This document shows, one piece after another, positions 21,549 to 43,658 of a DNA stretch of 64,000 nt. The notes under the pieces are model-generated. The model was not told where the DNA came from and ran no database searches. It saw only the letters and a program-made list of their open reading frames with translations. Position numbers and translations under genes: made by a program. This DNA comes from a virus (lineage: Duplodnaviria; Caudoviricetes). Location of the stretch: the IMG/VR virus record IMGVR_UViG_3300033066_000493, positions 3,067 through 67,066 of that record; one strand, 5' to 3'. Within the stretch, counting starts at the first letter, position 1. Every line of letters begins with the position of its first letter.

Positions 21549-22112
21549 TTATTTATTTTTAAATTTCTTTTTCTTTACTTTAGGAGTAATACTTCCGATT
21601 GCATTATCAAAATTATCACCGCTACCTTCTTTACCTGGTCCTGGAGGATTAACAGCTTTCATTCCTAATGTATTAGTTAATGTTGATATACCAGAACCAG
21701 AAACTTGTCCGGTAGTTGGTCCAGCTGCTAAATTTTCCCAAACTTTTTTTAAACCTATTTTATTAATATAATTTAATAATTGTAATTGATCTTCTTTTTC
21801 TAGATCATAACTATTAAGTATTTCAAATTCATTATCAGGTTTATTTTCTATAAAATTTATATTTTTACCAGTTAACCAATCTTTTAACATTGAAAAAACT
21901 GTATCGTTAGGATTACCTATTTTATAAACTACACCTTCTCTGATTCTATGTGGTAAACCATCATGTTTAGTTTTTGCAAACTCTTCTAAATCAGATTTAG
22001 ACATAGAATCCGCAATTCTTTGTATTTTTGGTGGACAATAATCAGATTTACCAGTTTTACACGCTAAAGCTTTAGCCATTATCCTTTGTTGTGCGATTGA
22101 TTTAGCTGGCAC
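21549..22112 (-). CDS. DUF3008-like N-terminal domain protein
   Basis: MPAKSIAQQRIM...MSKSDLEEFAKTKHDGLP matches the DUF3008-type motif as I recall it from T4-like phages. Confidence 0.65.
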   Translation of the reverse strand: MPAKSIAQQRIMAKALACKTGKSDYCPPKIQRIADSMSKSDLEEFAKTKHDGLPHRIREGVVYKIGNPNDTVFSMLKDWLTGKNINFIENKPDNEFEILNSYDLEKEDQLQLLNYINKIGLKKVWENLAAGPTTGQVSGSGISTLTNTLGMKAVNPPGPGKEGSGDNFDNAIGSITPKVKKKKFKNK

Positions 22113-22284
22113 GTTTGTTAATATTTTTTAATGCTTTATAATCCTTTTTCATTAATGTTTTAGCAGCTTTAGTTTCAGAATTAATTTTTCTAACAGGAGA
22201 ACGAACTATATGGCGGATAGCTAATTTTGTAGCTAATCCGCCTAATAATTCATTTAATTCATCATATTCTAATAAATGTAACAT
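22102..22284 (-). CDS. Small probable internal-head protein: acidic leader + cationic amphipathic peptide
   Basis: MLHLLEYDELNE followed by LLGGLATKLAIRHIVRSPVRK...KRAS. Confidence 0.55.
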   Translation of the reverse strand: MLHLLEYDELNELLGGLATKLAIRHIVRSPVRKINSETKAAKTLMKKDYKALKNINKRAS

Positions 22285-22805
22285 TAGTAACGATTATTTG
22301 CTGTAGATGATAATTTAGCATAATTATCAAAACCACCAGCAGCAGTTTTACCTGATAATTTAGCCATCTTATAATCATGTTTCATCAAATTTTTCTGTTT
22401 TTTCACACCTGCTTTATGACCAGCAGCAGCAGCTTTACCATGAGCTTTAGCTACACTACCAATTATACTAGATGCATGACCCATAAATCCTTCTGGCTCT
22501 TTCTTTTTGAATGGACCGAAAAATTCATTAATAGCATCATCAGTTAAAGTATAAGAATATTCATCATTTTCATCTATACTTTCTGAAACATACGAATCTA
22601 ATAAGGATGATAATGATTGAACATATGCATCTGTATCAGTTACTTCGTATCCGTAAAATTCTGCCACTTCTTCAAATAAAGATACCATTTCATCATATGA
22701 AAGACTACCATGTTCATTTAAAGATTCTATAACAGATTTTATAAATAATGATGCATCTACACCATCATTATTTAATTCTCTATATTGAGAGTATGTTAAA
22801 ATCAT
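22284..22805 (-). CDS. Probable internal-head protein: acidic N-half + basic Gly/Ala-rich C-half
   Basis: Acidic to DAINE, then FFGPFKKK...AKAHGKAAAAGHKAGVKK. Confidence 0.6.
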   Translation of the reverse strand: MILTYSQYRELNNDGVDASLFIKSVIESLNEHGSLSYDEMVSLFEEVAEFYGYEVTDTDAYVQSLSSLLDSYVSESIDENDEYSYTLTDDAINEFFGPFKKKEPEGFMGHASSIIGSVAKAHGKAAAAGHKAGVKKQKNLMKHDYKMAKLSGKTAAGGFDNYAKLSSTANNRY

Positions 22806-22829
22806 ATCTGTTTATTTTTTAAATTTAAA

Positions 22830-23492
22830 TTATTTAGCAGGTTGTCCGGCAGCAGCTTTTTTGGCAGCACTACGAGCTTTTAAAGCTTTGATACCTTTGT
22901 ATGCACCATAACCAGCACCAGCAGCTAATGCGGCACCACCAGCAGCAACACCTAATTTCTTATTACCGCTTAATTTATTAAATGCACCAGCAGCTTTACT
23001 AGTTCCACCAATATTTAATTTGCTACCAATAGCACCTGTTTTGCCAGCTACTGCACCAGCACCTTTAGCTATTGCTCCACCAGCTTGACCAACCTTTTGT
23101 TTAAGGAAAGATGCTGCACCTTTGATTGCACTACCACCTGCTGCTCTTTTATGTACGGCGTAAGGATTATTTTTTTCTAAAAGATCTTCACCTCTACGTG
23201 TTAGAGCAAATAATAATTCGCTTTCATCTTCATTAATTCCTTCATCAATGAATTGTGACCAATCAGCAATCCATTCTGCATAGCTTTCATACACTTCTGT
23301 ATTTAAATCATAACCAGTTTCATCCAATACATTGTCTAAAAATGTTACAACTTCTGATTCAGATAAGACTTCGCGTTCTTGCATTACTGTAAGTAATGCT
23401 TCCATGACTTCAATACCATTGCTATATTCATCTTGTCCTAAACCATTTGATGATTCATACAGATCGTTAAATTCGCTAAAACTTAGTATCAT
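22830..23492 (-). CDS. Probable internal-head protein: acidic N-half + basic Gly/Ala-rich hydrophobic C-half
   Basis: MILSFSEFNDLYES leader; acidic to DLLE; then KLGVAAGGAALAAGAGYGAYKGIKALK. Confidence 0.65.
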   Translation of the reverse strand: MILSFSEFNDLYESSNGLGQDEYSNGIEVMEALLTVMQEREVLSESEVVTFLDNVLDETGYDLNTEVYESYAEWIADWSQFIDEGINEDESELLFALTRRGEDLLEKNNPYAVHKRAAGGSAIKGAASFLKQKVGQAGGAIAKGAGAVAGKTGAIGSKLNIGGTSKAAGAFNKLSGNKKLGVAAGGAALAAGAGYGAYKGIKALKARSAAKKAAAGQPAK

Positions 23493-23519
23493 ATTATATT
23501 ATTATTTTTAATTTATTTT

Positions 23520-23861
23520 TTATATATTCTTATTTAAATAGTAAACTAGTTCATGTTGAAGATCTAGTTCATTATCATACAAATTATCATCCGATTCTTT
23601 CAATTTCTGCAATAATTTTTGACCTCTATCAGTTAATTTTAATGTATCGGCTGTAATCATTTTTATTAAATGTTTATTATCCAAAAGCCATCTTTTTGTT
23701 ACACCTATTTTTTCTAAAGATTTAATATCAATGGCTCCACCATTTTTAGCAATAGCATCTAAAATAATACTTCTAACAGGTGCATGTGTACTATGTTTAT
23801 GCGCTGGATGATTATCAGTATATTTCCGTTTTGTTATTAATATTTTCTCATTTAAATTCAT
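23520..23861 (-). CDS. Hypothetical protein (possible winged-helix, probable virion protein)
   Basis: MNLNE leader, KRKYTDNHPA motif, C-terminal LKES/acidic tail. Confidence 0.55.
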   Translation of the reverse strand: MNLNEKILITKRKYTDNHPAHKHSTHAPVRSIILDAIAKNGGAIDIKSLEKIGVTKRWLLDNKHLIKMITADTLKLTDRGQKLLQKLKESDDNLYDNELDLQHELVYYLNKNI

Positions 23862-23912
23862 CTTAAAAAATATTTTTTATTGTATTAATAGTTAACATTT
23901 TTTTGGTAAATT

Positions 23913-24350
23913 TTAAGCCTTGCCATGACCACCTATACCATAATCATTTTTACCTCTATAGTTGATGGATATTTTTTTACCATGATGTTTTGATAAGAAA
24001 TCGTTAACACCATCGTCAACTCCAGCTGCGTGTCCATGACTATGACCTACGGCAAATCCAGATTTTTTACCAGCTTTATGCCCTAAATATGCCGCACCAC
24101 CAACAGCACCTGCAACGGCAGCACCAGCAGCATATTTTTTCCAATGCTTTTTAAAGTGGTCTTTAACTTTACTACCAGTTGATGCTTTAGGAGCTTCAGC
24201 TTCGTTAAGTTCATTATAGTATAAATCTATATCAAAATCAAGACCATGATACTCATAAAGATAATCGGCTACGTCCTGGAGTATACCACCTTCTTTTGCT
24301 ATAATGTTTACATCAGAAACTATAGCTTCTGGAAAATTTAAAATACTCAT
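23913..24350 (-). CDS. HWKKY-family protein (acidic pro-region + cationic Gly/Ala-rich segment)
   Basis: ELNE|AEAPKASTGSKVKDHFKKHWKKYAAGAAVAGAVGGAAYLGHK. Confidence 0.7.
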   Translation of the reverse strand: MSILNFPEAIVSDVNIIAKEGGILQDVADYLYEYHGLDFDIDLYYNELNEAEAPKASTGSKVKDHFKKHWKKYAAGAAVAGAVGGAAYLGHKAGKKSGFAVGHSHGHAAGVDDGVNDFLSKHHGKKISINYRGKNDYGIGGHGKA

Positions 24351-24491
24351 TCGTTTTATTTTAATTTTATTTTACTTTTCATATCATGTAATGATTTTAA
24401 AAATCTTTATGAAATTATAAATTTCAATGGTCAATACACTCGACCTCTACAACTTAGAGTTTATATAATTTGAATTATATCTTATCTGTTG

Positions 24492-26396
24492 TTACTTTAA
24501 ATTATTTAATTCATCTTTCATAGATGAAAAATAACCATGTATACACTCTGGTATATATTTTTTAAATGAAAGATAGTCATCATTTTTTATATTTTCGACT
24601 ATATTTTTATTTAAAATATGTTTATCATTATTTATATATTTTTTAAATTCTATAAATTCTATTTTTTTATCATCATTTTCATTCAATTGTTGATTTTTCT
24701 TAAAGAATCTAATAAAATTTTCATTACCGGCTAGTGTTATTGGATAATATTTACCATCCAATTTTTCATTTATTAGTTGTTGTGAACTATTTTTTACTAT
24801 ATGGTAACCGACAAACATTTTATTATCTTCAACAATTTTAGTTAACATTTTTTCTGATAAATCTTTACTAAATGGTCTGCTTTCACCATTTACACCATTA
24901 TGTACTTGAAATATCATTATTGGCTTTTTATTACTCTCATATATTTTTTTACATGATTCCATATGACCATTATTAAATGGTTGAAATTTACCAATAACAA
25001 CATTCACACCTTTACCAGAAACAACTTTCTGTTCTTCCGTATTACTTTCTAAGGCTCTTTTCCAAAAAGAGACAATTCTCATAGAGTCAAGACTTTCTTC
25101 GTTTTCGAGTATTAGTTCGTCTTTTTGAATTAGACGCTCTGGTATGTCTGGTATTGCGTAATTTGACGTGTTTAGAGTGTCGTTAAGAGAGAATTCTTCT
25201 ATATAAGTTTCATATATTTCTTCGAAATTACCTTCATCAATACTTGTAATTTTTTTATATATCTGGTCTACTATATTATTTTGATATTTAGCAATAGATG
25301 GTGAAAGAAATTCTTTTGTTTTATTTCTTTTCTTTCTAAATAATGAAATAAACATTTTATAAATTTCTTTCCATGAAACTGATTTATTTACAAATAATAA
25401 TGTTTTTTTATTTTCTATTAAATCAAGGTTTAAATCAAATTTTGGTTGTTTTAAATATGATGGTAAATTTAAATCTAGAGTTTCATACTTATGTCCAAAA
25501 TTATCTATAAAATTATTATATACCCTGGATATCAATTCTATATATCTATCATTTACACCAATTTTATATAATTTCATCTTTCTCCATCTATCATCTTGTT
25601 CCATAAATTCTATAATATCAGAAAAAATAATCGATACTATATCATTTTTTTCTGTAGGAACATTTGTAGTTTTTGACATTTGTTCAAAATATGGATCTAT
25701 CATTTTTGCCAAAACTTGGTAGTTTTTATCTCCAAATGAAAATACAACACCTTCCATTTTATAATCAGAATTTGGATCAATTAATTCTGGTTTAAGTGCT
25801 GGGTTTAAAATACCTATTAAAAATTTAGAAAAACTATCAGTTTTAAACTTTTTTAAAATATCTTCTTTAGACATTCTAATATATTCCATCAGAGAATCTT
25901 TTTGTTTATCTGATAATCTGCCTTCGAAAATTATTGGTGGATAACCAACACCAAATTTATCAGCCCAACTATACAATTCATCTTTAGATGATATAACATA
26001 TTCTTCAGATTTTAAATCCTTATCATCCCTCTTAACTAAAATATGTGTTAAAACAAGTTTATTCTTTGGTATTACATTATAAGATTGTATATTTGTGTTA
26101 TCAGGAAAATATTGAAAATGAAATCTATAATTTGGTTTTATACCACTCAAAGTATCTGGTGTAAAAGTTTCAATATATTCTATAGCATCATCATAATATT
26201 TGGATAATATTCTGTCAATTTTAGATATTGGATTAGTAGTATCACGTTTAAAAAATAACAACTTTTCGCCATTATACTCAAATGAAAATTTAGAGGATGA
26301 TATTTTTTCGGATACTCGGCAATCCAGATTAAGCAAATTAGATATAAATTCTGAACCTTTTTTATCAAAAATATCTTGTAATATTTTTATTGACAT
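24492..26396 (-). CDS. Fusion of an RNA ligase 2-like adenylation domain and a HIGH-type nucleotidyltransferase-like domain
   Basis: VSEKISSSKFSF (cf. Rnl2 motif I EKIHGTNFS), EGVVF (motif IV), AKMID (motif V); C-terminal VIGKFQPFNNGH. Confidence 0.6.
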   Translation of the reverse strand: MSIKILQDIFDKKGSEFISNLLNLDCRVSEKISSSKFSFEYNGEKLLFFKRDTTNPISKIDRILSKYYDDAIEYIETFTPDTLSGIKPNYRFHFQYFPDNTNIQSYNVIPKNKLVLTHILVKRDDKDLKSEEYVISSKDELYSWADKFGVGYPPIIFEGRLSDKQKDSLMEYIRMSKEDILKKFKTDSFSKFLIGILNPALKPELIDPNSDYKMEGVVFSFGDKNYQVLAKMIDPYFEQMSKTTNVPTEKNDIVSIIFSDIIEFMEQDDRWRKMKLYKIGVNDRYIELISRVYNNFIDNFGHKYETLDLNLPSYLKQPKFDLNLDLIENKKTLLFVNKSVSWKEIYKMFISLFRKKRNKTKEFLSPSIAKYQNNIVDQIYKKITSIDEGNFEEIYETYIEEFSLNDTLNTSNYAIPDIPERLIQKDELILENEESLDSMRIVSFWKRALESNTEEQKVVSGKGVNVVIGKFQPFNNGHMESCKKIYESNKKPIMIFQVHNGVNGESRPFSKDLSEKMLTKIVEDNKMFVGYHIVKNSSQQLINEKLDGKYYPITLAGNENFIRFFKKNQQLNENDDKKIEFIEFKKYINNDKHILNKNIVENIKNDDYLSFKKYIPECIHGYFSSMKDELNNLK

Positions 26397-27538
26397 TTTA
26401 CATCCTCCAATCTATTATAAAACCACTTAAAACCACCAGCAGTTTTTGTTTTACCAGAACAACATTTAGATATATTTCCAGAATGTATATTTGTTTCTTT
26501 CATAGCATTTTTTATAGATTTATATTCTTTAATAAAATTGCAATCTAAATCATATTGATATACATTTCTTGAATAATGTTTATAATATTTATTTGAAATT
26601 TTTTCTTTAATTTCGTTTTTATCTATTTTTTTAAAACTCCAAAAAAATCCACCAGCAGTTTTATTTTTATTACTACAGCAACTACAAATATTACTGATAT
26701 TTACATTTGTAATATTACTAGCTTCTGTTATAGATTTATATTCTTTAATTAAATTACCATTTAAATCATATTGATATATCATTTTTTTGTTTACAGAATA
26801 TAGATATAATCTATAATTAATCTCATCTTTATTTAATTCAGTATATGACCAAAAAAAATTCTTAGCAGTTTTTAGTACATTATTACATGATATAAAAAGT
26901 AAATTAGAATTGATATTATTATATTTTGATGCATCTGTTATAGATTTGTATTTTCTAATAAATGTACCATTTAAATCATATTGATATATCATTTTTTTTA
27001 TAGTTTTTCTACCATTTATGATTTTTTTAATATTAAAAATTTCATCATCAGATAATTTATGATCCATCCAAATATAATTATCAATAATTTTAATATAATT
27101 ATTCGAAATACGTATTACATCTATATTTGTTTTTCTCTGTGTTTCTTTAATTGAAGGATATTCCTTAATAAAATTGCAATCTAAATCATATTGATATACA
27201 ATTTTAGATGTTTTAGCTTTCGATTCATCAGTATGATGACATCCTAGCCAAAAATTTTTACCGGTTTTTTTGGAAACATTATAGCCTATTTCCGGATTAG
27301 TTGCATCATATTTTTCTATCCAATACTCTTCTTTTTTATTTAATTCATCAAAATCATCAGAATAATCTATAATTTCTCTTTTAAAATTTTCTTTTCCTAT
27401 AGATTTAATATCTTCCTTTAATTTTTTATTTGAACCATAATAATTGGAATTTAATAATTCTTTTTCCGTTTTCATTATTTGTTTTTGACCTATATAAATC
27501 TTATTATTTATAAGATTTGTTGTTTTATAAATTAACAT
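26387..27538 (-). CDS. Free-standing GIY-YIG homing endonuclease with 4 NUMOD1-type repeats
   Basis: LIYKTTNLINNKIYIGQ, EEYWIEKY...GYN; four YQYDL..NFIKEY.SI repeats. Confidence 0.9.
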   Translation of the reverse strand: MLIYKTTNLINNKIYIGQKQIMKTEKELLNSNYYGSNKKLKEDIKSIGKENFKREIIDYSDDFDELNKKEEYWIEKYDATNPEIGYNVSKKTGKNFWLGCHHTDESKAKTSKIVYQYDLDCNFIKEYPSIKETQRKTNIDVIRISNNYIKIIDNYIWMDHKLSDDEIFNIKKIINGRKTIKKMIYQYDLNGTFIRKYKSITDASKYNNINSNLLFISCNNVLKTAKNFFWSYTELNKDEINYRLYLYSVNKKMIYQYDLNGNLIKEYKSITEASNITNVNISNICSCCSNKNKTAGGFFWSFKKIDKNEIKEKISNKYYKHYSRNVYQYDLDCNFIKEYKSIKNAMKETNIHSGNISKCCSGKTKTAGGFKWFYNRLEDVKCQ

Positions 27539-27602
27539 ATATTGACTATTTAAAAATATGAATATATAAAATAAAGTTTTTGTTATTTAATCTGGAAATG
27601 AT

Positions 27603-28167: not shown

Positions 28168-28177
28168 TTTTTAATCC

Positions 28178-29017
28178 TTAATTTAATAATTTTTGAATAG
28201 AATTTCTTTCTTTGTATATATTTAAAATGGAATCATACACAAAATCTATAATTTTATTAAAACCATCAATTTTTTGCTTTCTTTCTTTACCAAAATATGA
28301 CATTTTTATACCATTTATAGATTTTTGTATATTACCAAATTTAATATCCTTGAGTATATTAGTTAATCCTGGATGTTCATGCTCTAAACTTTTACAATGC
28401 TGTTCTAATTGATTGACTTTATCATACATCTCAGCTTGTATTTTCCACTCCTCATCACTTCTACTCCATGTCATTGGTGGTTTAGAATCATAATTTACAC
28501 CAACATTAGTTTTAATAGCATTTTCATAATTTTTAATGTCTAATAACCAATTATCAATATCTTGACCAGTTTTAATTTTAAATTCTATAGCTCTTTTGAA
28601 TTTTTTAATCAAATCTTTATGTCTTTTATCATTAACATCTAAATTATTATCTTCTATAAAATCATTAATGGTTGAATTAATATCACGTTTATCAAAACGT
28701 TTGATTGGTATTTTTAAATCTTTTAAATCTTTTATTAATTCTTTATATTTATTATCTGATTCTTCTTGATGTTTTAAGATTTTTAAATATATTGATATTA
28801 TAATACTCAATACTGAAATAGAACCTATAGTTATTAATATTGGATTTTTATTAATTTTAACCCACGATATTATTTTTTGCCATTTAGTTAATTCCTTTTT
28901 TTCTTCTTTTTTTAAATCAGATTCTGATTCAATATTATCGGATTCTAATAGATAATTGAAAAATGATAAATTGGAATTATATAAATTATATGAATTAAAA
29001 TCTAAAGTATGTTTCAT
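28178..29017 (-). CDS. Probable virion protein with a single TM segment (HWKKY-family related)
   Basis: Leader to YLLE, acidic linker, KWQKIISWVKINKNPILITIGSISVLSIIISIYLK. Confidence 0.55.
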   Translation of the reverse strand: MKHTLDFNSYNLYNSNLSFFNYLLESDNIESESDLKKEEKKELTKWQKIISWVKINKNPILITIGSISVLSIIISIYLKILKHQEESDNKYKELIKDLKDLKIPIKRFDKRDINSTINDFIEDNNLDVNDKRHKDLIKKFKRAIEFKIKTGQDIDNWLLDIKNYENAIKTNVGVNYDSKPPMTWSRSDEEWKIQAEMYDKVNQLEQHCKSLEHEHPGLTNILKDIKFGNIQKSINGIKMSYFGKERKQKIDGFNKIIDFVYDSILNIYKERNSIQKLLN

Positions 29018-29029
29018 TTAATTGATTTT

Positions 29030-29560
29030 TTAAGAAATAGCTTTCAGTGTATGATGTTGTGCTCTGTTTGATACATTACGTAATGTAGTTGCCATTTTTA
29101 ATTTTTTGACTGGATCCTTTTCGGTATCCATTTTATTTAATATCTTATCTTGCAAATCACTATATCTATTAGCTTGTTTTTCATGATCTATACCTACAGA
29201 TTTTGGCATATGTTTGGCTAAAGAAGATGTAGACGTTTTGGTAACATTAGATGCTGATTTGCCATTAAATAAACCTTTTTTATGTCCTAAATATGCTGCT
29301 CCACCAATAGCTGCTGCACCTGCCGCGCCAGCTGCATATTTTTTCCAATGTTTTTTAAAATGTCCTTTAATTCCACCACCTGATGTTTTTGGATCATCAG
29401 CTTCATTTATTATTTGGTATAATTCATCATCTAAAAAAATACCGTATTCTTCTAAAATATATTCTTCTAAAATATACGGGTCTATTTCTGATATTATTTC
29501 AACATCACAAGATATTCTTTCTTGTATTAGAAAATCATTAAAACTTAATATATTTAACAT
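29030..29560 (-). CDS. HWKKY-family protein
   Basis: QIINE|ADDPKTSGGGIKGHFKKHWKKYAAGAAGAAAIGGAAYLGHKK. Confidence 0.7.
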   Translation of the reverse strand: MLNILSFNDFLIQERISCDVEIISEIDPYILEEYILEEYGIFLDDELYQIINEADDPKTSGGGIKGHFKKHWKKYAAGAAGAAAIGGAAYLGHKKGLFNGKSASNVTKTSTSSLAKHMPKSVGIDHEKQANRYSDLQDKILNKMDTEKDPVKKLKMATTLRNVSNRAQHHTLKAIS

Positions 29561-29579
29561 TTTTTTATTTTTTTATTTT

Positions 29580-31049
29580 TTAGGTTAACCATTTTTTTGC
29601 AATAGCTTTTGCATAATCTACAGCTATTACAGTTTTATCATAATCTGCCATCAAAAGAATATCATTTCTATTATTAAATTTAATATTATGTAATCTTTTA
29701 TTCATTTCATCTAAATAAGTATTATATATTAGATCCATACATTCTTTACCACTATGAATTTCCGGTATAATACCTTTACTAAATATATTATTTTTATCTA
29801 AAGTTTTTATTAAGCCTCTAACACCCTTTAATAAAATATGTAAATTTATATTATCTCTACTCATACCAGGATTAAGATGTAATAACGAATCTATTTTCAT
29901 TTGACCTTCTTCTATACCGGCTACAGTACCCAACCAATTTGCAATATCTAATAGACATGTTTGGTAATTCCTACTTATATTATGTATTTGTTTAGAACCA
30001 GTATCAAATCTGGATTTTAAAGTATTGCTTCTTGGTGTTAACCAAGCATGAACTCCAGTATCTCCTATTTCTATCAAAAGATGTTTTTCTATAGCAGTAT
30101 AAACTCTACCATATGTTATACCTTTATAATTTTGTTCTGGTGTTAATCTATCAATTGTCCATTCTCTATATGGTCCAAATGTTGGTATAAAATCTACTAA
30201 TAATGTCATACCATCATTTATAAATACTGCAACAGAAATACCTCTAATCATTTTTTTATTCAATTTATTTCTGTTTAGATGAAATGTTAAATTCGCATCT
30301 ATATAATTTGGTTGAATATCTTGTATAAATTTTAAAATGATATTATTATAAAGTTCTAATGTTTTTTCTTCATCTAAATTTTTAGCTTTCATTTCACCAC
30401 TAAATTGTAATAATGGTAATGTTATTATAGCATCTATATCACCATAACGTTTATTAGGATTATCATGTATATCTTTATTCCAATAAAAAGCTGAACCAGT
30501 TATATCAAAATTCTCAACAGGTAACATTTTTTGATCATTCAGATATTTATTAATATCTGTAAATAATTCTTTTAATATACCATCAAACTCTTTTACATTA
30601 TGAGGTGTTACTTGATAATTTAAATCTCCTCTGAATGAAACCATATTTAATGCCTTATATTGCTCTGGTTTTAATTTAGTTTTTATATAATTATCACATT
30701 GTTCCATTAAATATTTTTTTTCATCATCAGAATGAGCAGCATTAATTTTTTTAATGTATGATTGTAAAACATTATCTGAATAAAATGTTTGAAATAATTC
30801 ATCCAATTCTTTTTTATCGAACTTACTTTCCAGTGAATCCTCGTAATTTTTTATTTTATTTTGAAGTACGGGATCAAAAGTACCTAATAATTTTTTACCA
30901 AGATTAGATTTAAATCTTTTTATAAAAATAATTATCAGTTTACCAAGTAATGTTGAAATACCAACAACAAGAATAAGTTTTAATATATCTATATTAAAAT
31001 CTATACCCTCATTTATATAATCATCATATTTTTGGATATATTTCATCAT
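29580..31049 (-). CDS. Pol-beta-superfamily nucleotidyltransferase-like protein with N-terminal hydrophobic segment
   Basis: ITGSAF...YGDIDAII...LLVDFI (GS, DxD, third Asp); leader MKYIQKYDDYINE then ILKLILVVGISTLLGKLIIIFIKR. Confidence 0.6.
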   Translation of the reverse strand: MMKYIQKYDDYINEGIDFNIDILKLILVVGISTLLGKLIIIFIKRFKSNLGKKLLGTFDPVLQNKIKNYEDSLESKFDKKELDELFQTFYSDNVLQSYIKKINAAHSDDEKKYLMEQCDNYIKTKLKPEQYKALNMVSFRGDLNYQVTPHNVKEFDGILKELFTDINKYLNDQKMLPVENFDITGSAFYWNKDIHDNPNKRYGDIDAIITLPLLQFSGEMKAKNLDEEKTLELYNNIILKFIQDIQPNYIDANLTFHLNRNKLNKKMIRGISVAVFINDGMTLLVDFIPTFGPYREWTIDRLTPEQNYKGITYGRVYTAIEKHLLIEIGDTGVHAWLTPRSNTLKSRFDTGSKQIHNISRNYQTCLLDIANWLGTVAGIEEGQMKIDSLLHLNPGMSRDNINLHILLKGVRGLIKTLDKNNIFSKGIIPEIHSGKECMDLIYNTYLDEMNKRLHNIKFNNRNDILLMADYDKTVIAVDYAKAIAKKWLT

Positions 31050-31552
31050 TTATAATTAGTTTTGATACTCTGTATTCCCTTTTCATCAAATAATTGTTCT
31101 ACTGAAAATTCTTTACCAAATGCTACATTACCATGCGATACAGAAAACTTTTTATCACCAGAACCACCAAATTTTTGAGCATTTTTAATCATATCATACT
31201 CATCAGTTAATGATGATGATATAATACTAAGTATTCTATCTGTATCGAAATCTTTTTTCCTTAGTTCTGTTTCCATTTTTTTATCGCCAATTTTTTTAGC
31301 AATAAGATAACCAGTTAAAAATGATAATGATATTCCTAATCCTAATGCATATTTTTTCCAATGATTTTGAAAATGTGATTTTATTTTACCAAAGAAACCA
31401 CTATTATCTTTATCATGAAACTCTTTCTTTTTATCATCTGGTAAAGAATCCCATTCCTTTTTAATTTCATCAGTCATATCTGTAGATTCAGTTAATAAAA
31501 TAAATGAATCATAAGATTCCATTTCATATATAAATTCATTAAGTTTTTTCAT
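31046..31552 (-). CDS. HWKKY-family protein with TM-like segment
   Basis: MKKLNEFIYE leader; KIKSHFQNHWKKYALGLGISLSFLTGYLIAKK. Confidence 0.65.
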   Translation of the reverse strand: MKKLNEFIYEMESYDSFILLTESTDMTDEIKKEWDSLPDDKKKEFHDKDNSGFFGKIKSHFQNHWKKYALGLGISLSFLTGYLIAKKIGDKKMETELRKKDFDTDRILSIISSSLTDEYDMIKNAQKFGGSGDKKFSVSHGNVAFGKEFSVEQLFDEKGIQSIKTNYK

Positions 31553-31639
31553 ATGTGTATTTTTTTTAAGATGCTCCTGTAAATGAAAATTTGTTAAGAA
31601 TTAGATTTTTCAATTTGAATTATATTTTCCATAGTTTAT

Positions 31640-32594: not shown

Positions 32595-32595
32595 A

Positions 32596-33767: not shown

Positions 33768-33787
33768 AAGATTTATTATTTTTATTA

Positions 33788-34528
33788 TTATCTAAAATCA
33801 TCTGGATGTTTACCTTCGGCTTTATTAGCACCAGCTCTCTTTTTGTCTATATGTCTACCTATTAGTGCACCAGCACCAGTTAATATTTTACCAGGACCTT
33901 TTACAGAATCACCTTTTTTAAAGGATTTATTTTTTAATGCCATACTAGTTGCTGCACCAATGCCTGCGCCTATATAAGCTCCACGATTCCTTTTAAAATG
34001 CGACTTTATGCTATCGCCGAATGATTTTTTTTTTTCTTGCTCTCCAGATTCTAAAATTTTTCTATAATCATCAGTTATTGAGAAGTAGGTTTCACCATCT
34101 TCTTCATTAATTAATGCAACAAATATGTCATCCAAACTTTCTAGTAATTCTTCAACATTTATTTCCAAATCAGAATCATTTTCATATAATACTTGTGAAA
34201 TATATTCGGTTATTTGTTCTAACGATTTAGGTTCCTCTTGTAAACCTTCGGCTATAGAATGTACTATTTCTTCTATTAAATCACCATCATTATTTTCTTC
34301 AGATTCTTGCGTTTTCGCACCTTTACCACCTTTCCATTCAGCCTTTATTTCTCCAAAAAATTTCTTTTTACCAGCATTATCTAATTTAGCTGGGCTTTCA
34401 ACCCCATGTTGCTGGAGTTTATTATTAAAAAACTTTTTATATTCTTTTTGCTTTGCACTATCTTCTTCGTTAATTTGTAAATCTCTCTCTAAACGAAAAG
34501 TTAGATAATCATTTAAAATCTCAGACAT
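33788..34528 (-). CDS. Probable prohead core/internal protein (acidic) with a C-terminal cationic Gly-rich segment
   Basis: YKKFFNNKLQQHGVESPAKL...KKKFFGEI motif (recalled from T4-like head proteins); KILE|...SIKSHFKRNRGAYIGAGIGAA. Confidence 0.6.
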   Translation of the reverse strand: MSEILNDYLTFRLERDLQINEEDSAKQKEYKKFFNNKLQQHGVESPAKLDNAGKKKFFGEIKAEWKGGKGAKTQESEENNDGDLIEEIVHSIAEGLQEEPKSLEQITEYISQVLYENDSDLEINVEELLESLDDIFVALINEEDGETYFSITDDYRKILESGEQEKKKSFGDSIKSHFKRNRGAYIGAGIGAATSMALKNKSFKKGDSVKGPGKILTGAGALIGRHIDKKRAGANKAEGKHPDDFR

Positions 34529-34605
34529 AGATTATTTTTTTATTTTTATGTTTTATATTTTTAACAAATATATATATTATTAGAAAAATTTTAAATATAA
34601 AAAAC

Positions 34606-35916
34606 ATGAAATACATAAAAGAATATAATAATTTTGAAGAATTAGATTTTTTAAATGAAGAGCAAAAATTAAATGTTGTTTGGAGAGATGCCATAGGCGA
34701 TCATTTTATGAATTATATAAGTAAAACATCGAATAATGTTATACATGGTGTTACACAAATAACTGATGATTATCTTAGAAAATCTTATGAAATTTTTCTA
34801 AAAAACAATAAAAAAGTTAGTGGTGATACAGATTTAAATTCGATAAAAAAAGATGCAGAGGATCACGCATCTGATGCTGTTAAAAACATCAAAGATGAAG
34901 ATAAAAAAAATGAAAGATACAAAAAGGAGTATGATAAGTATATAAAGGATAGGAAAAAAGAGCAAGAAGAAGGTGATACTATATCATTTGAAGAATTCAA
35001 GGAAACTGTAAATGATAGATTAAAACAAGAAAAAATATTAGAAGTTAGGAAAAAATTAAGTACGTTATTATTAGCTATAAGTATAGGATTAATAATTATA
35101 GGTGGTATAGGTGGGGCTATAATGTCACTAAGAGCAGTTATAGTGGCTCATGAAAAAAGGAAAAACAAGAAAAAAACAGGTAGTGATAAATTATCAGAAA
35201 AACAAGAGGATACTCTTTATAAGATTCTTGTAATATCAAAAGTTATGGTTGTTATTGGTGGTATAGGTGGAGCACTACGTTCATTTAAATTTTTAATAAA
35301 AACAAAGCAAGATTATACAGGATTTGAAGATGATCATGGATTTATGGGTGATATAGATTCTAGAAATGAATCCGTGGATTACAAAAAATTAGGCGAAAAC
35401 ACATATAATCTTATTAAAAATTCTAAAACATTTAATTCAATATTAAATAAATTAGGGGTAATAAAAGGTTTAAATAGTATTATGCAATCAGCAACAGAAT
35501 ATGCTTCAGGATTAGAAGAAGATATAATTATAAATGTTGCAAAAATGAATATGTTTTTTGATAGATATTTGACAAAATCAGAACAAAAAGAAATAATGAA
35601 ATTAAGTGGGTATGCTATTTCAATCATACATGAAAAAGAAATTTATAATAATTTTTATACATTAAATGAAGCTAGTGATAAAGATATTGAAAATATGTAT
35701 AATATGGCTATAAATTTAATTGGTCAAAATAAAATTGATAGTATTGTAGAAAAGGTGTGGGATAAAAATGTAGAGAATGGTTTAAAAGAATTGGAAAAAA
35801 TAAAAGATAACAATAAAGCTGCAATTAAAATTGCAGAAATAAAGAAAACTATCGATATGAAATTAGATTTTCACGAAAAACAAGAATTAATTAAACTTGG
35901 CGAAAAACTACTTTAG
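34606..35916 (+). CDS. Probable virion protein with two Gly-rich hydrophobic helices
   Basis: MKYIKEYNNFEE leader; LLLAISIGLIIIGGIGGAIM and ILVISKVMVVIGGIGGAL. Confidence 0.7.
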   Translation: MKYIKEYNNFEELDFLNEEQKLNVVWRDAIGDHFMNYISKTSNNVIHGVTQITDDYLRKSYEIFLKNNKKVSGDTDLNSIKKDAEDHASDAVKNIKDEDKKNERYKKEYDKYIKDRKKEQEEGDTISFEEFKETVNDRLKQEKILEVRKKLSTLLLAISIGLIIIGGIGGAIMSLRAVIVAHEKRKNKKKTGSDKLSEKQEDTLYKILVISKVMVVIGGIGGALRSFKFLIKTKQDYTGFEDDHGFMGDIDSRNESVDYKKLGENTYNLIKNSKTFNSILNKLGVIKGLNSIMQSATEYASGLEEDIIINVAKMNMFFDRYLTKSEQKEIMKLSGYAISIIHEKEIYNNFYTLNEASDKDIENMYNMAINLIGQNKIDSIVEKVWDKNVENGLKELEKIKDNNKAAIKIAEIKKTIDMKLDFHEKQELIKLGEKLL

Positions 35917-37708: not shown

Positions 37709-37735
37709 ACAGGTAGCTTTTATTTTTATGTGCCT

Positions 37736-38731
37736 CTATATATTTATTATATTATCATTTTCATTCAAATCTTCAACTTTTTTCCATAATCCATTATTCA
37801 ATAAAACTTTATGATTTCCTGTTATTTTTACAGTTGTGCCATTTTCCATTTCTAATTCATACATTTGAACATTTTTATTTAAATTTTTATAAACATATTC
37901 AACCTTTTTATGTTCAATTTGATTGGTAGTTTCATTATATGTTAATACTATATCATTAATTTTAATATCATTAATTTTTTTATAAGTATTATCAGACATT
38001 TTTATATTTGTATCTGGATGTAGGCATTCATCTACTGTAACAACATTAAATTCTGTAAAGAATTCATCTGGTAATTCTCTCAAAGTTTGGAATGTACCTA
38101 TAACAACATCTACATCTTTTTTCTCTTTACTTGCACCATCACCTATAGGTTGCATTTTAAAATTTATCAGTTGTTTATATTTTGAATATTCCTCAAAATC
38201 ACTTATACCTTGTATAACTAAAGAGTTATTAGGCACAATGATTAACATTCTATTTAGCTTACCATGAGTTTTTAAATAAGCGAACACCATGAAGACGATA
38301 AGAGTCTTTCCTGCACTTGTAGCAAGTTCATTAGAAGACCAACCATACTTTAATATGTTCATAGCAGTATTAATCTGATAATCGTAAGGTTTTTTATCAG
38401 ATTTTTCAAAAAAATTCTCTTGCCATTTTACAAACTCTTTACTATCAAAATCCTCATCTATTATAGCATTTAATCCAAAAATATCACATTCAAAATTATA
38501 TTTTTCACACATATTCATGACTTCTTGCCATAAACCAATAGGAATTTTATTGTTTTTAAAATATGATACTTTACCAGTCCATCCCCATTGTTTTAATTTT
38601 GGATTCTTTTTTAATAAGATCCAATAATTTCTAACCATTTTTGTAAATGTTATTTCTATTTGTCGTAGTTCTAATTCATCTGCTTCAATAAGTTTTAAAT
38701 ATTTTTTATCGGATGTTACTTCGAATTTCAT
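37736..38731 (-). CDS. uvsW: UvsW-like SF2 helicase, N-terminal part ending in split-intein N fragment
   Basis: PYDYQ (Q motif), ATSAGKT (Walker A), IIVPNNSL, TFQTL, VTVDE then CLHPDT. Confidence 0.9.
   Translation of the reverse strand: MKFEVTSDKKYLKLIEADELELRQIEITFTKMVRNYWILLKKNPKLKQWGWTGKVSYFKNNKIPIGLWQEVMNMCEKYNFECDIFGLNAIIDEDFDSKEFVKWQENFFEKSDKKPYDYQINTAMNILKYGWSSNELATSAGKTLIVFMVFAYLKTHGKLNRMLIIVPNNSLVIQGISDFEEYSKYKQLINFKMQPIGDGASKEKKDVDVVIGTFQTLRELPDEFFTEFNVVTVDECLHPDTNIKMSDNTYKKINDIKINDIVLTYNETTNQIEHKKVEYVYKNLNKNVQMYELEMENGTTVKITGNHKVLLNNGLWKKVEDLNENDNIINI
37739..38026 (-). mobile_element. Split intein N fragment (96 aa)
   Basis: CLHPDTNIKM (block A)...KITGNHKVL (block B TxxH)...WKKVEDL. 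Confidence 0.92.
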
Positions 38732-38745
38732 ATATTCTTTTATTT

Positions 38746-39237
38746 TTATAATAATTCATCAAACTTTATTTTATTTTTTATTTGGTAAATTAAATGATCT
38801 AATGATTTCAAAGTTTCATTTAGAAATTTAATATGATTAACCAATAAATTATAAAACTGTTCAGTTTCGGCAACTAATCCATCTATTTGTAGATAAATTG
38901 CCTGATATGATTTAAATTTGCCAACATTATCATCATAACACTGTTTTTTTTCTTGTTTTAATTGTCTTAAAGTTTTTTCAACATGGTCTTGTATTGCAAA
39001 TGTTTCTTCTATTAATCTTTGTCTATCTGATATTATTTTAGTATTTGATATTTGTTTTAAATCTTTAAATGATTCATCATGTTCAATTATTATTTCTGTC
39101 CATTTATTACGCATAGTAGCTAAGGATTTCTTTAATCTAGAAACCTTTGCACTATCTTTTTTATCAAAAAGATTGACATTAAAAGATTTCCCTAACTCTT
39201 CCTGTATTTCCACATCTTCGAGATCTGAATTTTTCAT
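38746..39237 (-). CDS. UvsY-like recombination mediator (tentative)
   Basis: Helical, ends FLNETLKSLDHLIYQIKNKIKF resembling the UvsY C-terminus; adjacent to uvsW as in T4. Confidence 0.45.
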   Translation of the reverse strand: MKNSDLEDVEIQEELGKSFNVNLFDKKDSAKVSRLKKSLATMRNKWTEIIIEHDESFKDLKQISNTKIISDRQRLIEETFAIQDHVEKTLRQLKQEKKQCYDDNVGKFKSYQAIYLQIDGLVAETEQFYNLLVNHIKFLNETLKSLDHLIYQIKNKIKFDELL

Positions 39238-39397
39238 TATTATCTCTTAAATTTGTTATTATAATTTCTTCTTTATCATGTATTTTTTTAGGTTTAGATA
39301 GAACCATATTTTGTTCTATACTTAGAATACCATCAAATATTAATTCGAATGGCATAATCTTTTTATTTATAAAAACTAAATCTTGGTGTTTAAACAT
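39179..39397 (-). CDS. Hypothetical protein
   Basis: 72-aa ORF filling the gap between primase and UvsY-like genes. Confidence 0.4.
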   Translation of the reverse strand: MFKHQDLVFINKKIMPFELIFDGILSIEQNMVLSKPKKIHDKEEIIITNLRDNNEKFRSRRCGNTGRVREIF

Positions 39398-40469
39398 GTA
39401 TTATATTTAATTTATTATTTGAAAAATAATTATCAAAAGGTAGCAATTTTATACCATTATTTTTACTGTATATAATCAAATCGTTTAAATCTTTTATATG
39501 TTCTAATATAGAATTATCATTTAGATATTTTTTCCATAAAAAGATTTTATTACCTTCTTTTATTTTTGAAATTGCTTTCTTTTTACCAGTTTCATCATTA
39601 TCAAACCAATATTGCATATTTTCTATTTCAAAATCCAAAACATTATGTGCTCCAGATAATGCTATTGAATTGTCATATAAAAAACTATCCATTGGGCCTT
39701 CAAACACTGTTACATTTCTATCAAAATTTATATTTAAAATATTAAATATACTTGATATATTATCCAATTTGGATACCGAATCATTTATATCTAAATCGCA
39801 TTCTTTATATATTGTACTTAATTTATACGTAAAATATTTTTTTTGTTTAAGTGGACGAATTTGATAACCAATAATAATATCATCTATACCATTTAATATA
39901 ACTAAAGAATTTGTTTTTGGTTGATATAAAAAATTATTATTATTATTTTGGTACCTATTTAATAGGAACGTTTCACAATTGGTATTATTTATTTCTGTAA
40001 AACCTAAATATTCTTTTAATTTTTCTTTTGTTAAAGAATATTTTCGTATATCATCTAAATCTAGAAAATTTAATCTAACAGTTGATATATTTCTAAAATC
40101 TACATCTGATTGAAAATTTCTAATTGCATATAAATCTACATCATTTAAATCACATTTATCTTTATATTCTTTTATGAAAGAATAAAGACTCATTTTTATA
40201 CCACAATTAAAACACTTGTAACTCATATTTTTAAAATATAAATTACCACGTTTTTTAAAACTATCTGTTGTGCTATCACCACAATAAGGACATGCAAAAT
40301 TAAATCTAGAATTAAAATCTTCTATTTTTCTTTTGTTTGGATTTACAAAAGTCTGATCTAAGACACATTGAATATGTGTTTTTATTTTATCTAAACTTAA
40401 TACTTCTCTATTTTTATTTAAATTTTCTAACGAAAATGTAAAATTTATATCAAATAAATCACTATCCAT
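39390..40469 (-). CDS. DNA primase (T4 gp61-like)
   Basis: FACPYCGDS...KRGNLY...CFNCG Zn ribbon; TOPRIM VFEGPMDS, FDNDETG, KDLND. Confidence 0.88.
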   Translation of the reverse strand: MDSDLFDINFTFSLENLNKNREVLSLDKIKTHIQCVLDQTFVNPNKRKIEDFNSRFNFACPYCGDSTTDSFKKRGNLYFKNMSYKCFNCGIKMSLYSFIKEYKDKCDLNDVDLYAIRNFQSDVDFRNISTVRLNFLDLDDIRKYSLTKEKLKEYLGFTEINNTNCETFLLNRYQNNNNNFLYQPKTNSLVILNGIDDIIIGYQIRPLKQKKYFTYKLSTIYKECDLDINDSVSKLDNISSIFNILNINFDRNVTVFEGPMDSFLYDNSIALSGAHNVLDFEIENMQYWFDNDETGKKKAISKIKEGNKIFLWKKYLNDNSILEHIKDLNDLIIYSKNNGIKLLPFDNYFSNNKLNIIHV

Positions 40470-40490
40470 TTTATTTCAAATAATAAAATT

Positions 40491-40527
40491 AAAAAAAAAT
40501 GGGGATAAAATTAAATTTATCCCCATT
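40491..40527 (-). terminator. Intrinsic terminator after the ssDNA-binding protein gene
   Basis: AATGGGGATAAA-ATTAAA-TTTATCCCCATT 12-bp stem (40498-40527) plus A-run. Confidence 0.85.
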
Positions 40528-40532
40528 ATCAT

Positions 40533-41564
40533 TTATAAATCTTTGTATAAATCGTCATCATCGTCATCATCGGGGATAGTAACCTTTGATTTTTTAGAAG
40601 GTTTCATTTGTGGTATATCTTCATCTTCAAACATATCATCTAAAGAATCTCTAGTAGGAGAATATTCCGCTCTATCAACAACTTTTTCTTTTTGTATAGA
40701 ATTTTTTACTTTTGAAGTAATTGATGAAATTTTTGATTCTTCTTTAGAATATGAACCATCGCCAAATATTTTAGATTTAATTTTACCAGATGGTAAAATA
40801 GACTCAATCGATTCTAATACAAATGTTTTTGTATCATCATCCCAAGGTTTAAAATTATATTTATTTAAATCTGGAGAATTATCTTCTAAATATTTTTTGA
40901 TAATAGACATATCTTCTTTTGTTCTTTCCATTGCTCTACCATCTATTTCAATTGGCTTAGAATCTCCAATAAATTGAGAATCATCATAATTGTTATAGTT
41001 TGATACAGTTTTGATATGTAACATGAATAATTTACCAGTAAACAAATCAAATGGTTTATTGGTATTTGATATACCATCCATACCATCTGGACTCATTATA
41101 TTTTTAATTTTATCATGTACTTTTTTACCATATTTAAAAATCTTAATTTTACCTTCTAATTCTGGGTGATTAGGATCTTTAACTATTTGAATTAAAGAAT
41201 AAAAACTTTCACGTCTTGTAAATTGAGATGCTAAATCTTCTTCTCTAGCATTATCAGATTTTTTTAACATGAAATATATATCTTGAAGAATTGATTTTTC
41301 TTTAATAGAACTAGGACAATCAATCATTCTTGATTGATCGGTATTTTGGTTTGTCAACCAAACAGTCCATTTAGATTTAATAGATTCTTGTGGATTTTTT
41401 ACAAAAGGTAAAAAACGTATTACTGATTTGTAAACACCGTCTTTACCTTCTTTTGCGGAAGGTCTGTATAAATCATCATAAGCTGATGATTTTTTATCAT
41501 CCTTAAATAAGTCGGATGAATCAATATTGAATAGTGCATCGTCGATGCTAAAGTTGTTTGCCAT
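40533..41564 (-). CDS. Single-stranded DNA-binding protein (T4 gp32-like)
   Basis: VIRFLP, DCPSSI, GKIKIFKYGKK, PFDLFTG, NYDDS, acidic tail DDDDDDLYKDL; SD AAGGAG. Confidence 0.88.
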   Translation of the reverse strand: MANNFSIDDALFNIDSSDLFKDDKKSSAYDDLYRPSAKEGKDGVYKSVIRFLPFVKNPQESIKSKWTVWLTNQNTDQSRMIDCPSSIKEKSILQDIYFMLKKSDNAREEDLASQFTRRESFYSLIQIVKDPNHPELEGKIKIFKYGKKVHDKIKNIMSPDGMDGISNTNKPFDLFTGKLFMLHIKTVSNYNNYDDSQFIGDSKPIEIDGRAMERTKEDMSIIKKYLEDNSPDLNKYNFKPWDDDTKTFVLESIESILPSGKIKSKIFGDGSYSKEESKISSITSKVKNSIQKEKVVDRAEYSPTRDSLDDMFEDEDIPQMKPSKKSKVTIPDDDDDDDLYKDL

Positions 41565-41653
41565 CTTTTACTCCTTGATTTTTTTAAAATATTTGAACTG
41601 TTTGTAATTATTGTACGTTTGTATCTTAAATTTGTTTAAATTAAATTTAAACT

Positions 41654-42271
41654 TTATTTTATTTGAACTGTTTTGGCTGTAAAGTATGCATCTATAAGAT
41701 CATCTATAGGTTTAATCCAGTGTCTATTTATAAATAATGTATCTTTATTATCATTTAAAAATACCCTTAATTCATCATCATCAATGATATTTAAATATGA
41801 TTCAGCTATTTGATCTTTATTATAATTTCCATTACCAGCAATAGATTTTATAGTTTTTGGACTGTATATTGAAAAATTATAATTATTTTTTATTAATTTG
41901 TGTCGTAATAAATAGTTATATCCAGCTAATTCTGCTAAACGATTTCCAGTGGAACCATACGAGAACCCTTCTAAACCTATCTTAACTTCACTGTCTTTAA
42001 TTTTACTTTGTATATATTCTATTATTGAATCTGTTAAAAATTCTGCTTCTATTAGATTATTATTTTCTCTTACTTGATAATTTTTACTTTCTACTATCGG
42101 TTTGTTTATATTTAAACTTAAATTTTTAAATTCTTTTAAAACATCTATACCTATCACTTCTTTTTTTGTTAATTTACCAGGCCTATATAAACTATAATAA
42201 TTAAATATATTATCATTATTTACACAAACTGCTGGCGATGAAATGGAAAAATCTATACCTATAAATATCAT
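41654..42271 (-). CDS. RuvC-like Holliday junction resolvase
   Basis: IGIDFSISSPAV, LEGFSYGS, PKTIK..A.G.GN..K, DDLIDAY. Confidence 0.75.
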   Translation of the reverse strand: MIFIGIDFSISSPAVCVNNDNIFNYYSLYRPGKLTKKEVIGIDVLKEFKNLSLNINKPIVESKNYQVRENNNLIEAEFLTDSIIEYIQSKIKDSEVKIGLEGFSYGSTGNRLAELAGYNYLLRHKLIKNNYNFSIYSPKTIKSIAGNGNYNKDQIAESYLNIIDDDELRVFLNDNKDTLFINRHWIKPIDDLIDAYFTAKTVQIK

Positions 42272-43065
42272 AGTTTTAAGTTACTCATAAAGTGATTTAA
42301 ATGAGTTATAGTAACACCACCTTTTTTACCCTTTTCCTTTAACGAAGATGTTAAAGTGATATGAAGTGCTGGTATCTTAGTTCTGTGTTTAATTAAATCT
42401 GGATATGTTTTGAAAAATTCAGAAAGAGCAATATTACCTTTTATTCTACTTGTAATTTTTCTTTTGAAACTCAAATAATTCGCAGCATTTTTTATAACGT
42501 ATATATTATTTTTACTAGGAGACTTATCATTTAATTTAAAATCACTATACTTAACTGTTAATGGATTTTCTTCAAAATTTCTATCTTTATTTTTATTTAA
42601 AAATTCAATAGTTTTACCTAAATCTGCATTTACTTCATCAAATTTTGAAATATATTTATTTGATATAATAGATGCAAATTCAGTTATATTTGTTATTGAT
42701 TTTTCTGGTGTATTATCTTTTAATATATTTATAACTTCTATTTGGCTACCTATATCATTTGATAAATCTTTATCAGACATTATTGAATTTATAATATCTT
42801 TAGTTGCATCTTGTTTTTGTTTATCAAATATATCATTAACATCTACTACTTTAGAATTACTTTTATATTTTTTAAATAGAACAGCAGCGGTTATACCAAC
42901 AGCAGCAGAACCTAATAATATTGCTATTTTTTTCCAATGTTTTTCTAAAAATGATTGTACCTTTTTATCATCCGGTTTAGAATCATTTATAATTTCATCT
43001 TCTATACCAGTTTCATTATCATCAGATTCTAATAGATATTGATTGTATTCTAAAATATATTTCAT
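42268..43065 (-). CDS. HWKK-family protein with TM-like segment
   Basis: MKYILEYNQYLLE leader; KVQSFLEKHWKKIAILLGSAAVGITAAVLFKKYK. Confidence 0.65.
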   Translation of the reverse strand: MKYILEYNQYLLESDDNETGIEDEIINDSKPDDKKVQSFLEKHWKKIAILLGSAAVGITAAVLFKKYKSNSKVVDVNDIFDKQKQDATKDIINSIMSDKDLSNDIGSQIEVINILKDNTPEKSITNITEFASIISNKYISKFDEVNADLGKTIEFLNKNKDRNFEENPLTVKYSDFKLNDKSPSKNNIYVIKNAANYLSFKRKITSRIKGNIALSEFFKTYPDLIKHRTKIPALHITLTSSLKEKGKKGGVTITHLNHFMSNLKL

Positions 43066-43655: not shown

Positions 43656-43658
43656 ATA

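Follow-up and report, generated by a model that had tools for sequence, protein, structure and literature searches.

Two described phage systems come closest to the proteins considered here, namely the internal head proteins of bacteriophage T4 and the ejection proteins of podophages. The heads of T4 hold about 1000 molecules of basic internal proteins embedded in the DNA (PMC3012670). In the T4 capsid-targeting sequence (CTS; MKTYQEFIAE), targeting depends on residues 4 and 7 and cleavage on residues 8 and 10, and the protease gp21 cleaves after L/I-X-E, as was first shown at a Glu-Ala bond (PMC9026906). The ejection proteins of podophages (gp14, gp15 and gp16 of T7; gp7, gp16 and gp20 of P22) are carried inside the virion; they have predicted transmembrane helices, stay soluble within the particle and become inserted in the envelope on ejection (PMC8954989; PMC8402733). 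The proteins described below share traits with both systems. They are encoded in a stretch of 64,000 nucleotides (positions 3,067 to 67,066 of the IMG/VR virus record IMGVR_UViG_3300033066_000493; 'the window' denotes this whole stretch), and are defined by a conserved unit that we term the 'HWKKY module'. Comparative evidence for capsid addressing, the membrane character of the module, and the precedent of packaged ejection proteins whose predicted transmembrane helices are soluble before ejection (PMC8954989) together suggest that these proteins may be packaged in the head of a giant T4-type phage, trimmed by a protease and inserted into the host membrane at entry, a tentative reading to which we give somewhat less than even weight.

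The resemblance to the T4 internal proteins (IPI, IPII, IPIII and the enzyme Alt) lies in a short leader in which two aromatic residues, spaced three apart, precede (I/L)-x-E, in the presence of the same leader on unrelated proteins scattered over the genome, in basic mature parts, and in a lineage whose protease is of the gp21 type and whose capsid protein is of the Gp23 type. The leaders here differ in being 12-14 residues long and of two variants (as opposed to 10 residues in T4), and many of the proteins, unlike those of T4, combine a hydrophobic helix of membrane length with an acidic domain that offers a further candidate site of cleavage. No homology to IPI, IPII, IPIII or Alt was found, as the Pfam and PHROG internal-head families were unmatched at E <= 0.1. 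With respect to the podophage ejection proteins, HWKKY-bearing proteins at two other loci (L001 and L026, below) hold comparable positions in structural modules; in contrast, the window proteins are much smaller, with a single helix, and their phage is T4-type, presumably with a contractile tail. When ten window proteins were compared with Pfam-A and PHROGs, no ejection-protein family was matched (the presence of the P22_gp7 model in the Pfam copy being unconfirmed), and no Pfam family reached its cut-off (E <= 0.1).

A sequence-only reading of the window had also described the released peptides as cecropin- or bacteriocin-like. The layout does recall that of cecropin-type and other propiece-held cationic peptides: an acidic pro-region precedes a cationic helix and then a hydrophobic one rich in Gly and Ala, and the charges of the precursor roughly cancel (net 0 to +1 for the products of genes 23913 and 29030, genes being named here by their first position). 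A kinship was not borne out. No family matched, and the 20-residue, charge-free, Lys-flanked stretch is of membrane length, which makes it look closer to an anchor than to a peptide that lyses membranes; moreover, the N-termini are acidic leaders, unlike the signal peptides of cecropin precursors, and the HWKKY proteins are not secreted. The basic helix, described in that reading as amphipathic, is only moderately so, with a hydrophobic moment of 0.30-0.41 for the HWKK stretch; this is below the value for the N-terminal helix of cecropin A, which we take to be 0.58. The analogy describes the layout, not a family relationship. Small-residue-rich helices are likewise found in the glycine-zipper families of Pfam (Gly-zipper_Omp, PF13488; Gly-zipper_YMGG, PF13441), but the HWKKY juxtamembrane motif is not present in those families, and only the product of gene 33788 scores against them, at 19.0 and 15.7 bits, under the respective cut-offs of 25 and 28.9.

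The HWKKY module and its members

The motif HWKK(Y/I) occurs exactly where it had been reported, at 24132-24146, 29336-29350, 31349-31363 and 42925-42939, in minus-strand genes. These four copies compare with 0.04 expected from composition in the 20,097 residues of the 72 window proteins (Poisson P 1e-7), and such statistics, together with conserved homologs, rule out a chance or low-complexity artefact. The near-identical continuation of two of the copies is also real: the products of 23913-24350 and 29030-29560 are 42% identical over 136 residues (E 1e-25). Their modules share 29 identical residues but just 19 identical codons, which points to selection at the level of the protein, and these synonymous differences rule out a recent gene conversion.

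A profile hidden Markov model (HMM) built from 79 copies of the module recovers four window proteins at E 1e-14 to 1e-18. The consensus of the module (~45 residues) begins K-(V/I)-K-x-(H/F)-(F/L)-K-K-(H/N)-W-K-K-(Y/I)-A, continues through about 20 Gly/Ala-rich columns in which the 79 copies have no charged residue at all, and ends G-(H/K)-K. In its length and flanks, this arrangement reads as a predicted membrane-spanning helix. On the Kyte-Doolittle scale the helix is plainly hydrophobic in 31046 (1.57) and 42268 (2.38) and marginal in both HWKKY paralogs (1.1-1.2); Gly and Ala together make up 16-30% of the family proteins, as against 8% of the AT-rich window proteome.

Such a helix would also suit ordinary phage membrane proteins that are inserted in the infected cell (for superinfection exclusion, membrane remodelling or enzyme anchoring), in which case the module would be a signal-anchor and the leader an N-terminal trait of the lineage, unrelated to the capsid. 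This account is possible, if rather unlikely. Twenty uncharged residues behind a Lys-rich N-terminal flank, with acidic C-terminal flanks in many homologs and in a protein of another T4-like phage (G001, below), are hallmarks of a single-pass anchor; leaderless mini-proteins exist, and the window genes lie among early-type genes. In the window copies, however, both flanks are basic, which by the positive-inside rule would disfavour insertion from the cytoplasm.

The marginal hydrophobicity of the two HWKKY paralogs is, in turn, in keeping with a second alternative, in which the proteins would be packaged in the head and processed there with no membrane role at all, their mature parts binding or condensing DNA in the manner of the T4 internal proteins, or serving as core or scaffold, while the Gly/Ala helix oligomerises. 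The evidence from leader and protease (below) applies to this account as it does to membrane insertion, and the mature parts have a high positive charge (+11 to +20) and a low complexity, 22830 ending in an AKKAAAG-type tail. We nevertheless consider it unlikely, as the charge-free length of ~20 residues is kept across the 79 copies, the helix is fully hydrophobic in 31046 and 42268, and a DNA binder has no evident need of a charge-free helix.

Four genes, all on the minus strand, encode clear members. Protein B (176 residues; 29030-29560; module HMM E 1.5e-18) consists of the leader MLNILSFNDFLIQE (residues 1-14), an acidic helical domain (residues 15-53) ending INE↓A (the arrow marks a candidate cut), the module (residues 59-105; 29246-29386), which comprises TSGGGIKGHFKKHWKKY, the uncharged Gly/Ala helix and then GHKKG, and a C-terminal helical hairpin (residues 126-175). 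Homologs with 33-94% identity to it retain the leader, the acidic domain, the (I/L)NEA site and the module. Its AlphaFold2 model shows helices in residues 7-39 at a predicted local distance difference test (pLDDT) score of 77-86 and the hairpin above 90, with low confidence in the module; a BFVD fold search with this model returned nothing below E 0.5, and the best score in an ESM Atlas search, 0.78, was uninformative. Protein A (145 residues; 23913-24350; module HMM E 9e-18) has the leader MSILNFPE, an acidic domain ending LNE↓A (residues 48-50), the module at 24042-24182 and a His/Gly-rich basic tail.

In protein C (168 residues; 31046-31552; module HMM E 5e-18), the leader MKKLNEFIYE and an acidic/polar part are followed by HFQNHWKKY, the hydrophobic helix ALGLGISLSFLTGYLIA and a C-terminal part of 80 residues, the module lying at 31259-31399. 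Protein D (265 residues; 42268-43065; module HMM E 1.2e-14) opens with the type-1 leader MKYILEYNQYLLE↓S and continues through FLEKHWKKI and the predicted transmembrane helix AILLGSAAVGITAAVLF (module at 42835-42975) into a C-terminal domain of 200 residues to which no fold is assigned (pLDDT 42 for the predicted structure). The gene overlaps both of its neighbours, at its start the stop of 43062-43655 (by 4 nucleotides) and at its stop the start codon of the RuvC-like gene. It abuts an operon of large proteins (43062-57972). A structural nature of that operon is suggested only by weak PHROG matches, and we claim nothing beyond these, because a Pfam scan of the large proteins at 43062-58814 gave no match.

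The earlier estimate, that at least nine genes share one design, stands for these four and can be extended to two more by way of fusion proteins in other phages. The first of the two, a degenerate member at 33788-34528 (minus strand; 246 residues), ranks fifth with the module HMM at a non-significant E of 0.29. It has a leader-like start, a phrog_28651 module in residues 27-66 (E 3.7e-8), a long acidic domain ending ILE↓S and then SHFKRNRGAYIGAGIGAATSMALKNK in place of the HWKKY module; a protein of another phage (P0019) has the same module order, with the N-terminal module and acidic domain of 33788 followed by a true HWKKY module (E 9e-16). The second, at 22830-23492 (minus strand; 220 residues, with 30% Gly and Ala against the 8% of the proteome), has the leader MILSFSEFNDLYE↓S, an acidic domain (net -25) ending LLE↓K and a Lys/Gly/Ala-rich tail with the basic-flanked helix LGVAAGGAALAAGAGYGAY, and its homolog in a further phage (P0092) joins the 22830 leader and acidic domain to a true NWKKY module (E 7e-20). 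These fusions tie 33788 and 22830 to the family.

With the module HMM, 22830 itself stays at noise level, as do 22102, 22284 and 28178. The loosely related protein of 22284-22805 (minus strand; 173 residues) has the leader MILTYSQYRELNND, an acidic domain ending INE↓F and a basic tail; the weakly supported 60-residue protein of 22102-22284 (minus strand) has the leader MLHLLEYDELNE↓L and a basic tail like the end of 22284-22805; and neither has a hydrophobic helix. The 279-residue product of 28178-29017 (minus strand) is a leader-bearing, predicted single-pass protein with LLE↓S at residue 25 and a strong transmembrane helix at residues 58-78, and has no sequence similarity to the HWKKY module. 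As these three share just the leader together with the charge layout or a hydrophobic helix, the HWKKY family in the window is, judged from sequence, one of four to six members and not nine.

Phage lineage, leader and candidate cut sites

The window is nearly the whole of a 67-kb IMG/VR virus contig that CheckV places at ~24% complete; its G+C content is ~24%, and the minus strand holds almost all of its genes. It encodes a RuvC-like resolvase and a T4-type gp32 (PF08804, 52.7 bits; also phrog_224), whose closest relatives among GenBank phages are those of the uncultured phage LR756500.1 (462 kb; 40% identity) and of the Prevotella Lak megaphages. LR756500.1, an uncultured huge phage with a G+C content of 24% that is unannotated in GenBank, is collinear by blastp with window positions 1667-57972 across 262-304 kb, a span of ~40 kb. 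The common order runs polymerase, 24492 homolog, 33788 homolog, UvsW, primase, gp32, RuvC and the large proteins of 43062-57972, the collinear proteins being 24-47% identical; at the place that 42268 takes up in the window, LR756500.1 encodes, between RuvC and the 43062 homolog, two proteins of like design that lack HWKK. Its head module comprises a portal-like gene (228664-230346), an open reading frame (ORF) for a Peptidase_S77 (T4 gp21-type) protease above the Pfam cut-off (226725-228623), and, adjoining the latter, a Gp23-type capsid protein (225025-226677; E 2e-34, above the Pfam cut-off), the ORF of which, read from its first ATG, opens MIKLINE↓A. The Lak-C1 phage, too, has a Peptidase_S77 protease above the cut-off.

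In the window members, the core of the leader is aromatic-x-(E/D)-aromatic-(I/L)-x-E, built like the CTS of T4. A second variant, M-x-ILNF-x-(E/D)-(F/W/Y), is found on other members, on their homologs and on a matching LR756500.1 protein, and these type-2 leaders (MLNILSFNDFLIQE, MILSFSEFNDLYE) again follow the scheme aromatic-x-x-aromatic ... (I/L)-x-E. A position-specific scoring matrix trained solely on 23 LR756500.1 N-termini (consensus MKYIKEYEEFILE) gives 12-29 bits to five window proteins, HWKK protein D (24.1 bits) among them, where 0.0 are expected at 12 bits or more; a looser regular expression is matched by 11 of the 72 window genes, with 0.16-0.2 expected. A leader is present on all eight of the window proteins whose uncharged helix has basic flanks, as compared with none of 57 others (Fisher P 5e-7; the leader list behind this comparison was made partly by inspection), and both of the proteins of that kind among the 677 of LR756500.1 carry it as well. 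The leader heads at least 23 proteins of LR756500.1, and of the roughly 30 that are tagged in all most have no hydrophobic helix, so that it serves as a general tag and is not confined to membrane proteins. The fit of the leader to the T4 CTS pattern, and its presence on many soluble proteins of LR756500.1, speak against the assignment of the family to infected-cell membranes.

The acid/base layout of the precursors had also been described correctly: in the products of 22102, 22284, 22830, 23913, 29030 and 33788, the best split between the charged halves falls at most five residues from an [IL]-x-E site, with N-terminal parts of -4 to -25 and C-terminal parts of +11 to +20. Homologs of the HWKKY subfamily (31-94% identity) keep the leader M-x-I-L-N-F-x-E-W/F..., an acidic helical domain with YL.E.YGI.LD, and (I/L)-N-E-(A/S) a few residues ahead of the module. 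At the aligned column, (I/L)-N-E↓A is present in 10 of 14 homologs, and the other four have hydrophobic-x-E within 8 residues; more generally, 54 of 66 cases have hydrophobic-x-E no more than 30 residues upstream of the module, where shuffles give 40.2 +/- 3.4. In one subclass of homologs, a leader of 10-12 residues ending (I/V)-x-E-S is followed directly by the module, and many homologs run from M-x(6-10)-hydrophobic-x-E-(S/G) straight into it. An acidic part is altogether missing from some homologs, so that such a propiece is not intrinsic to the module.

The module in other phages

A search of 1.84 billion representative proteins with the module profile yielded 96 clusters, mostly of 40-350 residues. 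That the family is an undescribed one remains true, as no Pfam or PHROG family, no cultured phage and no paper in the literature matches the module. Among ~185,000 prokaryote species, each represented by one genome, it was found in a single contig of a metagenome-assembled genome (MAG), and hence is no widespread protein of prophages or of cell membranes. Profile scans with family or module alignments added one other viral contig and two short metagenome contigs, with none in genome contigs; DNA-pattern scans gave 5 true viral loci out of 24 and 1 MAG contig out of 6; and a search for close relatives with a 780-residue protein returned nothing.

The neighbourhoods of these relatives bear on the alternatives in different ways. 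At one locus (L001), downstream of the gene for the large terminase, the portal gene lies between those of a 600-residue protein with two modules and a 163-residue protein with one, and multi-module relatives in this region reach 600-811 residues. On a podovirus-like contig (L026/L007), the module lies three genes after the capsid gene and before virion structural genes. Such positions, beside the portal and between capsid and tail genes, weigh against proteins that act only in the membrane of the infected cell. At a further locus (L018), the module adjoins a terminase-like ORF, which was named by eye from its sequence and not by family search, and the copies upstream of that ORF would be in keeping with an infected-cell role.

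The same position suits holin- or antiholin-like lysis proteins, as lambdoid phages have lysis genes upstream of terminase; so do the small size, single hydrophobic helix and charged tails of the family, and a faint match of 42268 to an Rz-like spanin PHROG (E 0.056). A lysis function is nevertheless very improbable: no holin family was matched in Pfam or PHROGs, no endolysin was recognised among the neighbours scanned, four to six paralogs in 20 kb far exceed what a lysis system needs, and relatives of 600-800 residues carry several modules.

Another bearer of the module is a 195-kb T4-like phage (G001; IMGVR_UViG_3300042197_002234) with an S77 protease at 89690-90115. This unrelated phage has, at 170-186 kb, a tag of its own, MK(I/L)(I/V)ITE(S/N), on ~13 small proteins. 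The C-terminal part of its HWKKY protein had a peptidoglycan-binding look that Pfam did not confirm, and the idea was dropped. A separate group of long proteins (P0012, P0015, P0022 and P0042), which may not be from phages, contains a related unit, G(K/R)GI.DFLKKHKKKI with a Gly/Ala helix, repeated 3-5 times, along with AT-hook-like GRGRPKK runs and a His run. The phrog_28651 unit of 33788 (residues 27-66) is small and Lys-rich (…KKFF..K…G…P..LD.AGKKKFFGEIK.EWK) and is also present in P0019 and in LR756500.1 at 269766-270629.

A possible route to the host membrane

If the family is packaged and membrane-inserting, we infer an internal cut, a chaperone role for the acidic domain, ejection and an effect on the membrane, along the following lines. 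The leader would dock the precursor in the prohead core, and the gp21-type (S77) protease of the lineage would remove it after (I/L)-x-E; in the two HWKKY paralogs, a second cut at (I/L)-N-E↓A could free a basic fragment (+11 to +16) from the acidic domain (-11 to -15). That domain may keep the weakly hydrophobic helix soluble and off the membrane of the producer cell. The mature proteins would exit the head with the DNA and insert in the host inner membrane, their Lys-rich side drawn inward by the membrane potential, where they could help to form or stabilise an entry path for the very large genome, or else tether their C-terminal domains there (as in 42268 and 31046).

Several observations weigh against this route. 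Head genes and an S77 protease were not found in the window or in the 67-kb record, which we attribute to the contig being only ~24% complete, and the protease of the lineage is presumed from relatives at just 25-40% protein identity. The family genes of the window sit amid replication genes and homing endonucleases, outside any head module, and the HWKKY protein of the 195-kb phage lacks the MKIIITE tag of that phage and lies far from its head genes. The Glu of the internal site is absent in 3-4 of the 14 homologs; some homologs have neither leader nor acidic part and resemble plain small membrane proteins (such as P0088, of 39 residues); and strongly hydrophobic helices (that of 42268, and those of the leader-bearing 28178 and 29580) would be prone to capture by the membrane-insertion machinery of the producer cell. 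Cultured phages gave no tblastn match, even for the module alone at E 10.

A broader and frankly doubtful proposal is that the HWKKY module could be a mobile membrane-insertion cassette for virion-delivered proteins, common to T4-type giant phages, podovirus-like phages and phages with SPP1/Mu-type portals. In the giant phages the acidic pro-domain would keep it latent until the prohead protease, cutting at (I/L)-N-E↓A, armed it, so that the capsid would carry voltage-driven membrane peptides, ready to insert, by which the host inner membrane is opened or conditioned to admit a genome of at least 300 kb.

The wider questions on which these proteins bear are how giant phages bring several hundred kilobases of DNA across the inner membrane and what their many head proteins do. 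If the HWKKY proteins are packaged, they would represent an adaptation of the T4 capsid-targeting system to membrane-inserting cargo, beyond the basic internal proteins and the enzyme Alt that it is known to carry in T4, and a protease-removable acidic domain could serve as a 'safety catch'. The module, which phages of unrelated types have conserved and which annotation libraries lack, may be of use as a marker for candidate ejection proteins in metagenomes, and its 45 residues would make a compact peptide for studies of membrane insertion.

Some further features of the window may be recorded. Three leader-bearing proteins (29580-31049, 34606-35916 on the plus strand, and 28178-29017) have a strongly hydrophobic helix soon after the predicted cut; one of them is a nucleotidyltransferase-like protein of 489 residues, the plus-strand gene 34606-35916 has two Gly-rich helices, and the loading of any of the three into a capsid would be unusual. 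The sequence AATATATA is present in 20 copies on the minus strand and 3 on the plus strand (for example at 23521-23528, 34571-34578, 47682-47689 and 50890-50897), lies 20-47 nucleotides upstream of eight gene starts and may be a promoter element; as it precedes family and non-family genes alike, its use as a marker of expression class was abandoned. Finally, two pairs of tandem paralogs were observed, one at 46591-47118 and 47134-47661 (81% identical) and the other at 62216-63094 and 63102-63986 (64% identical).

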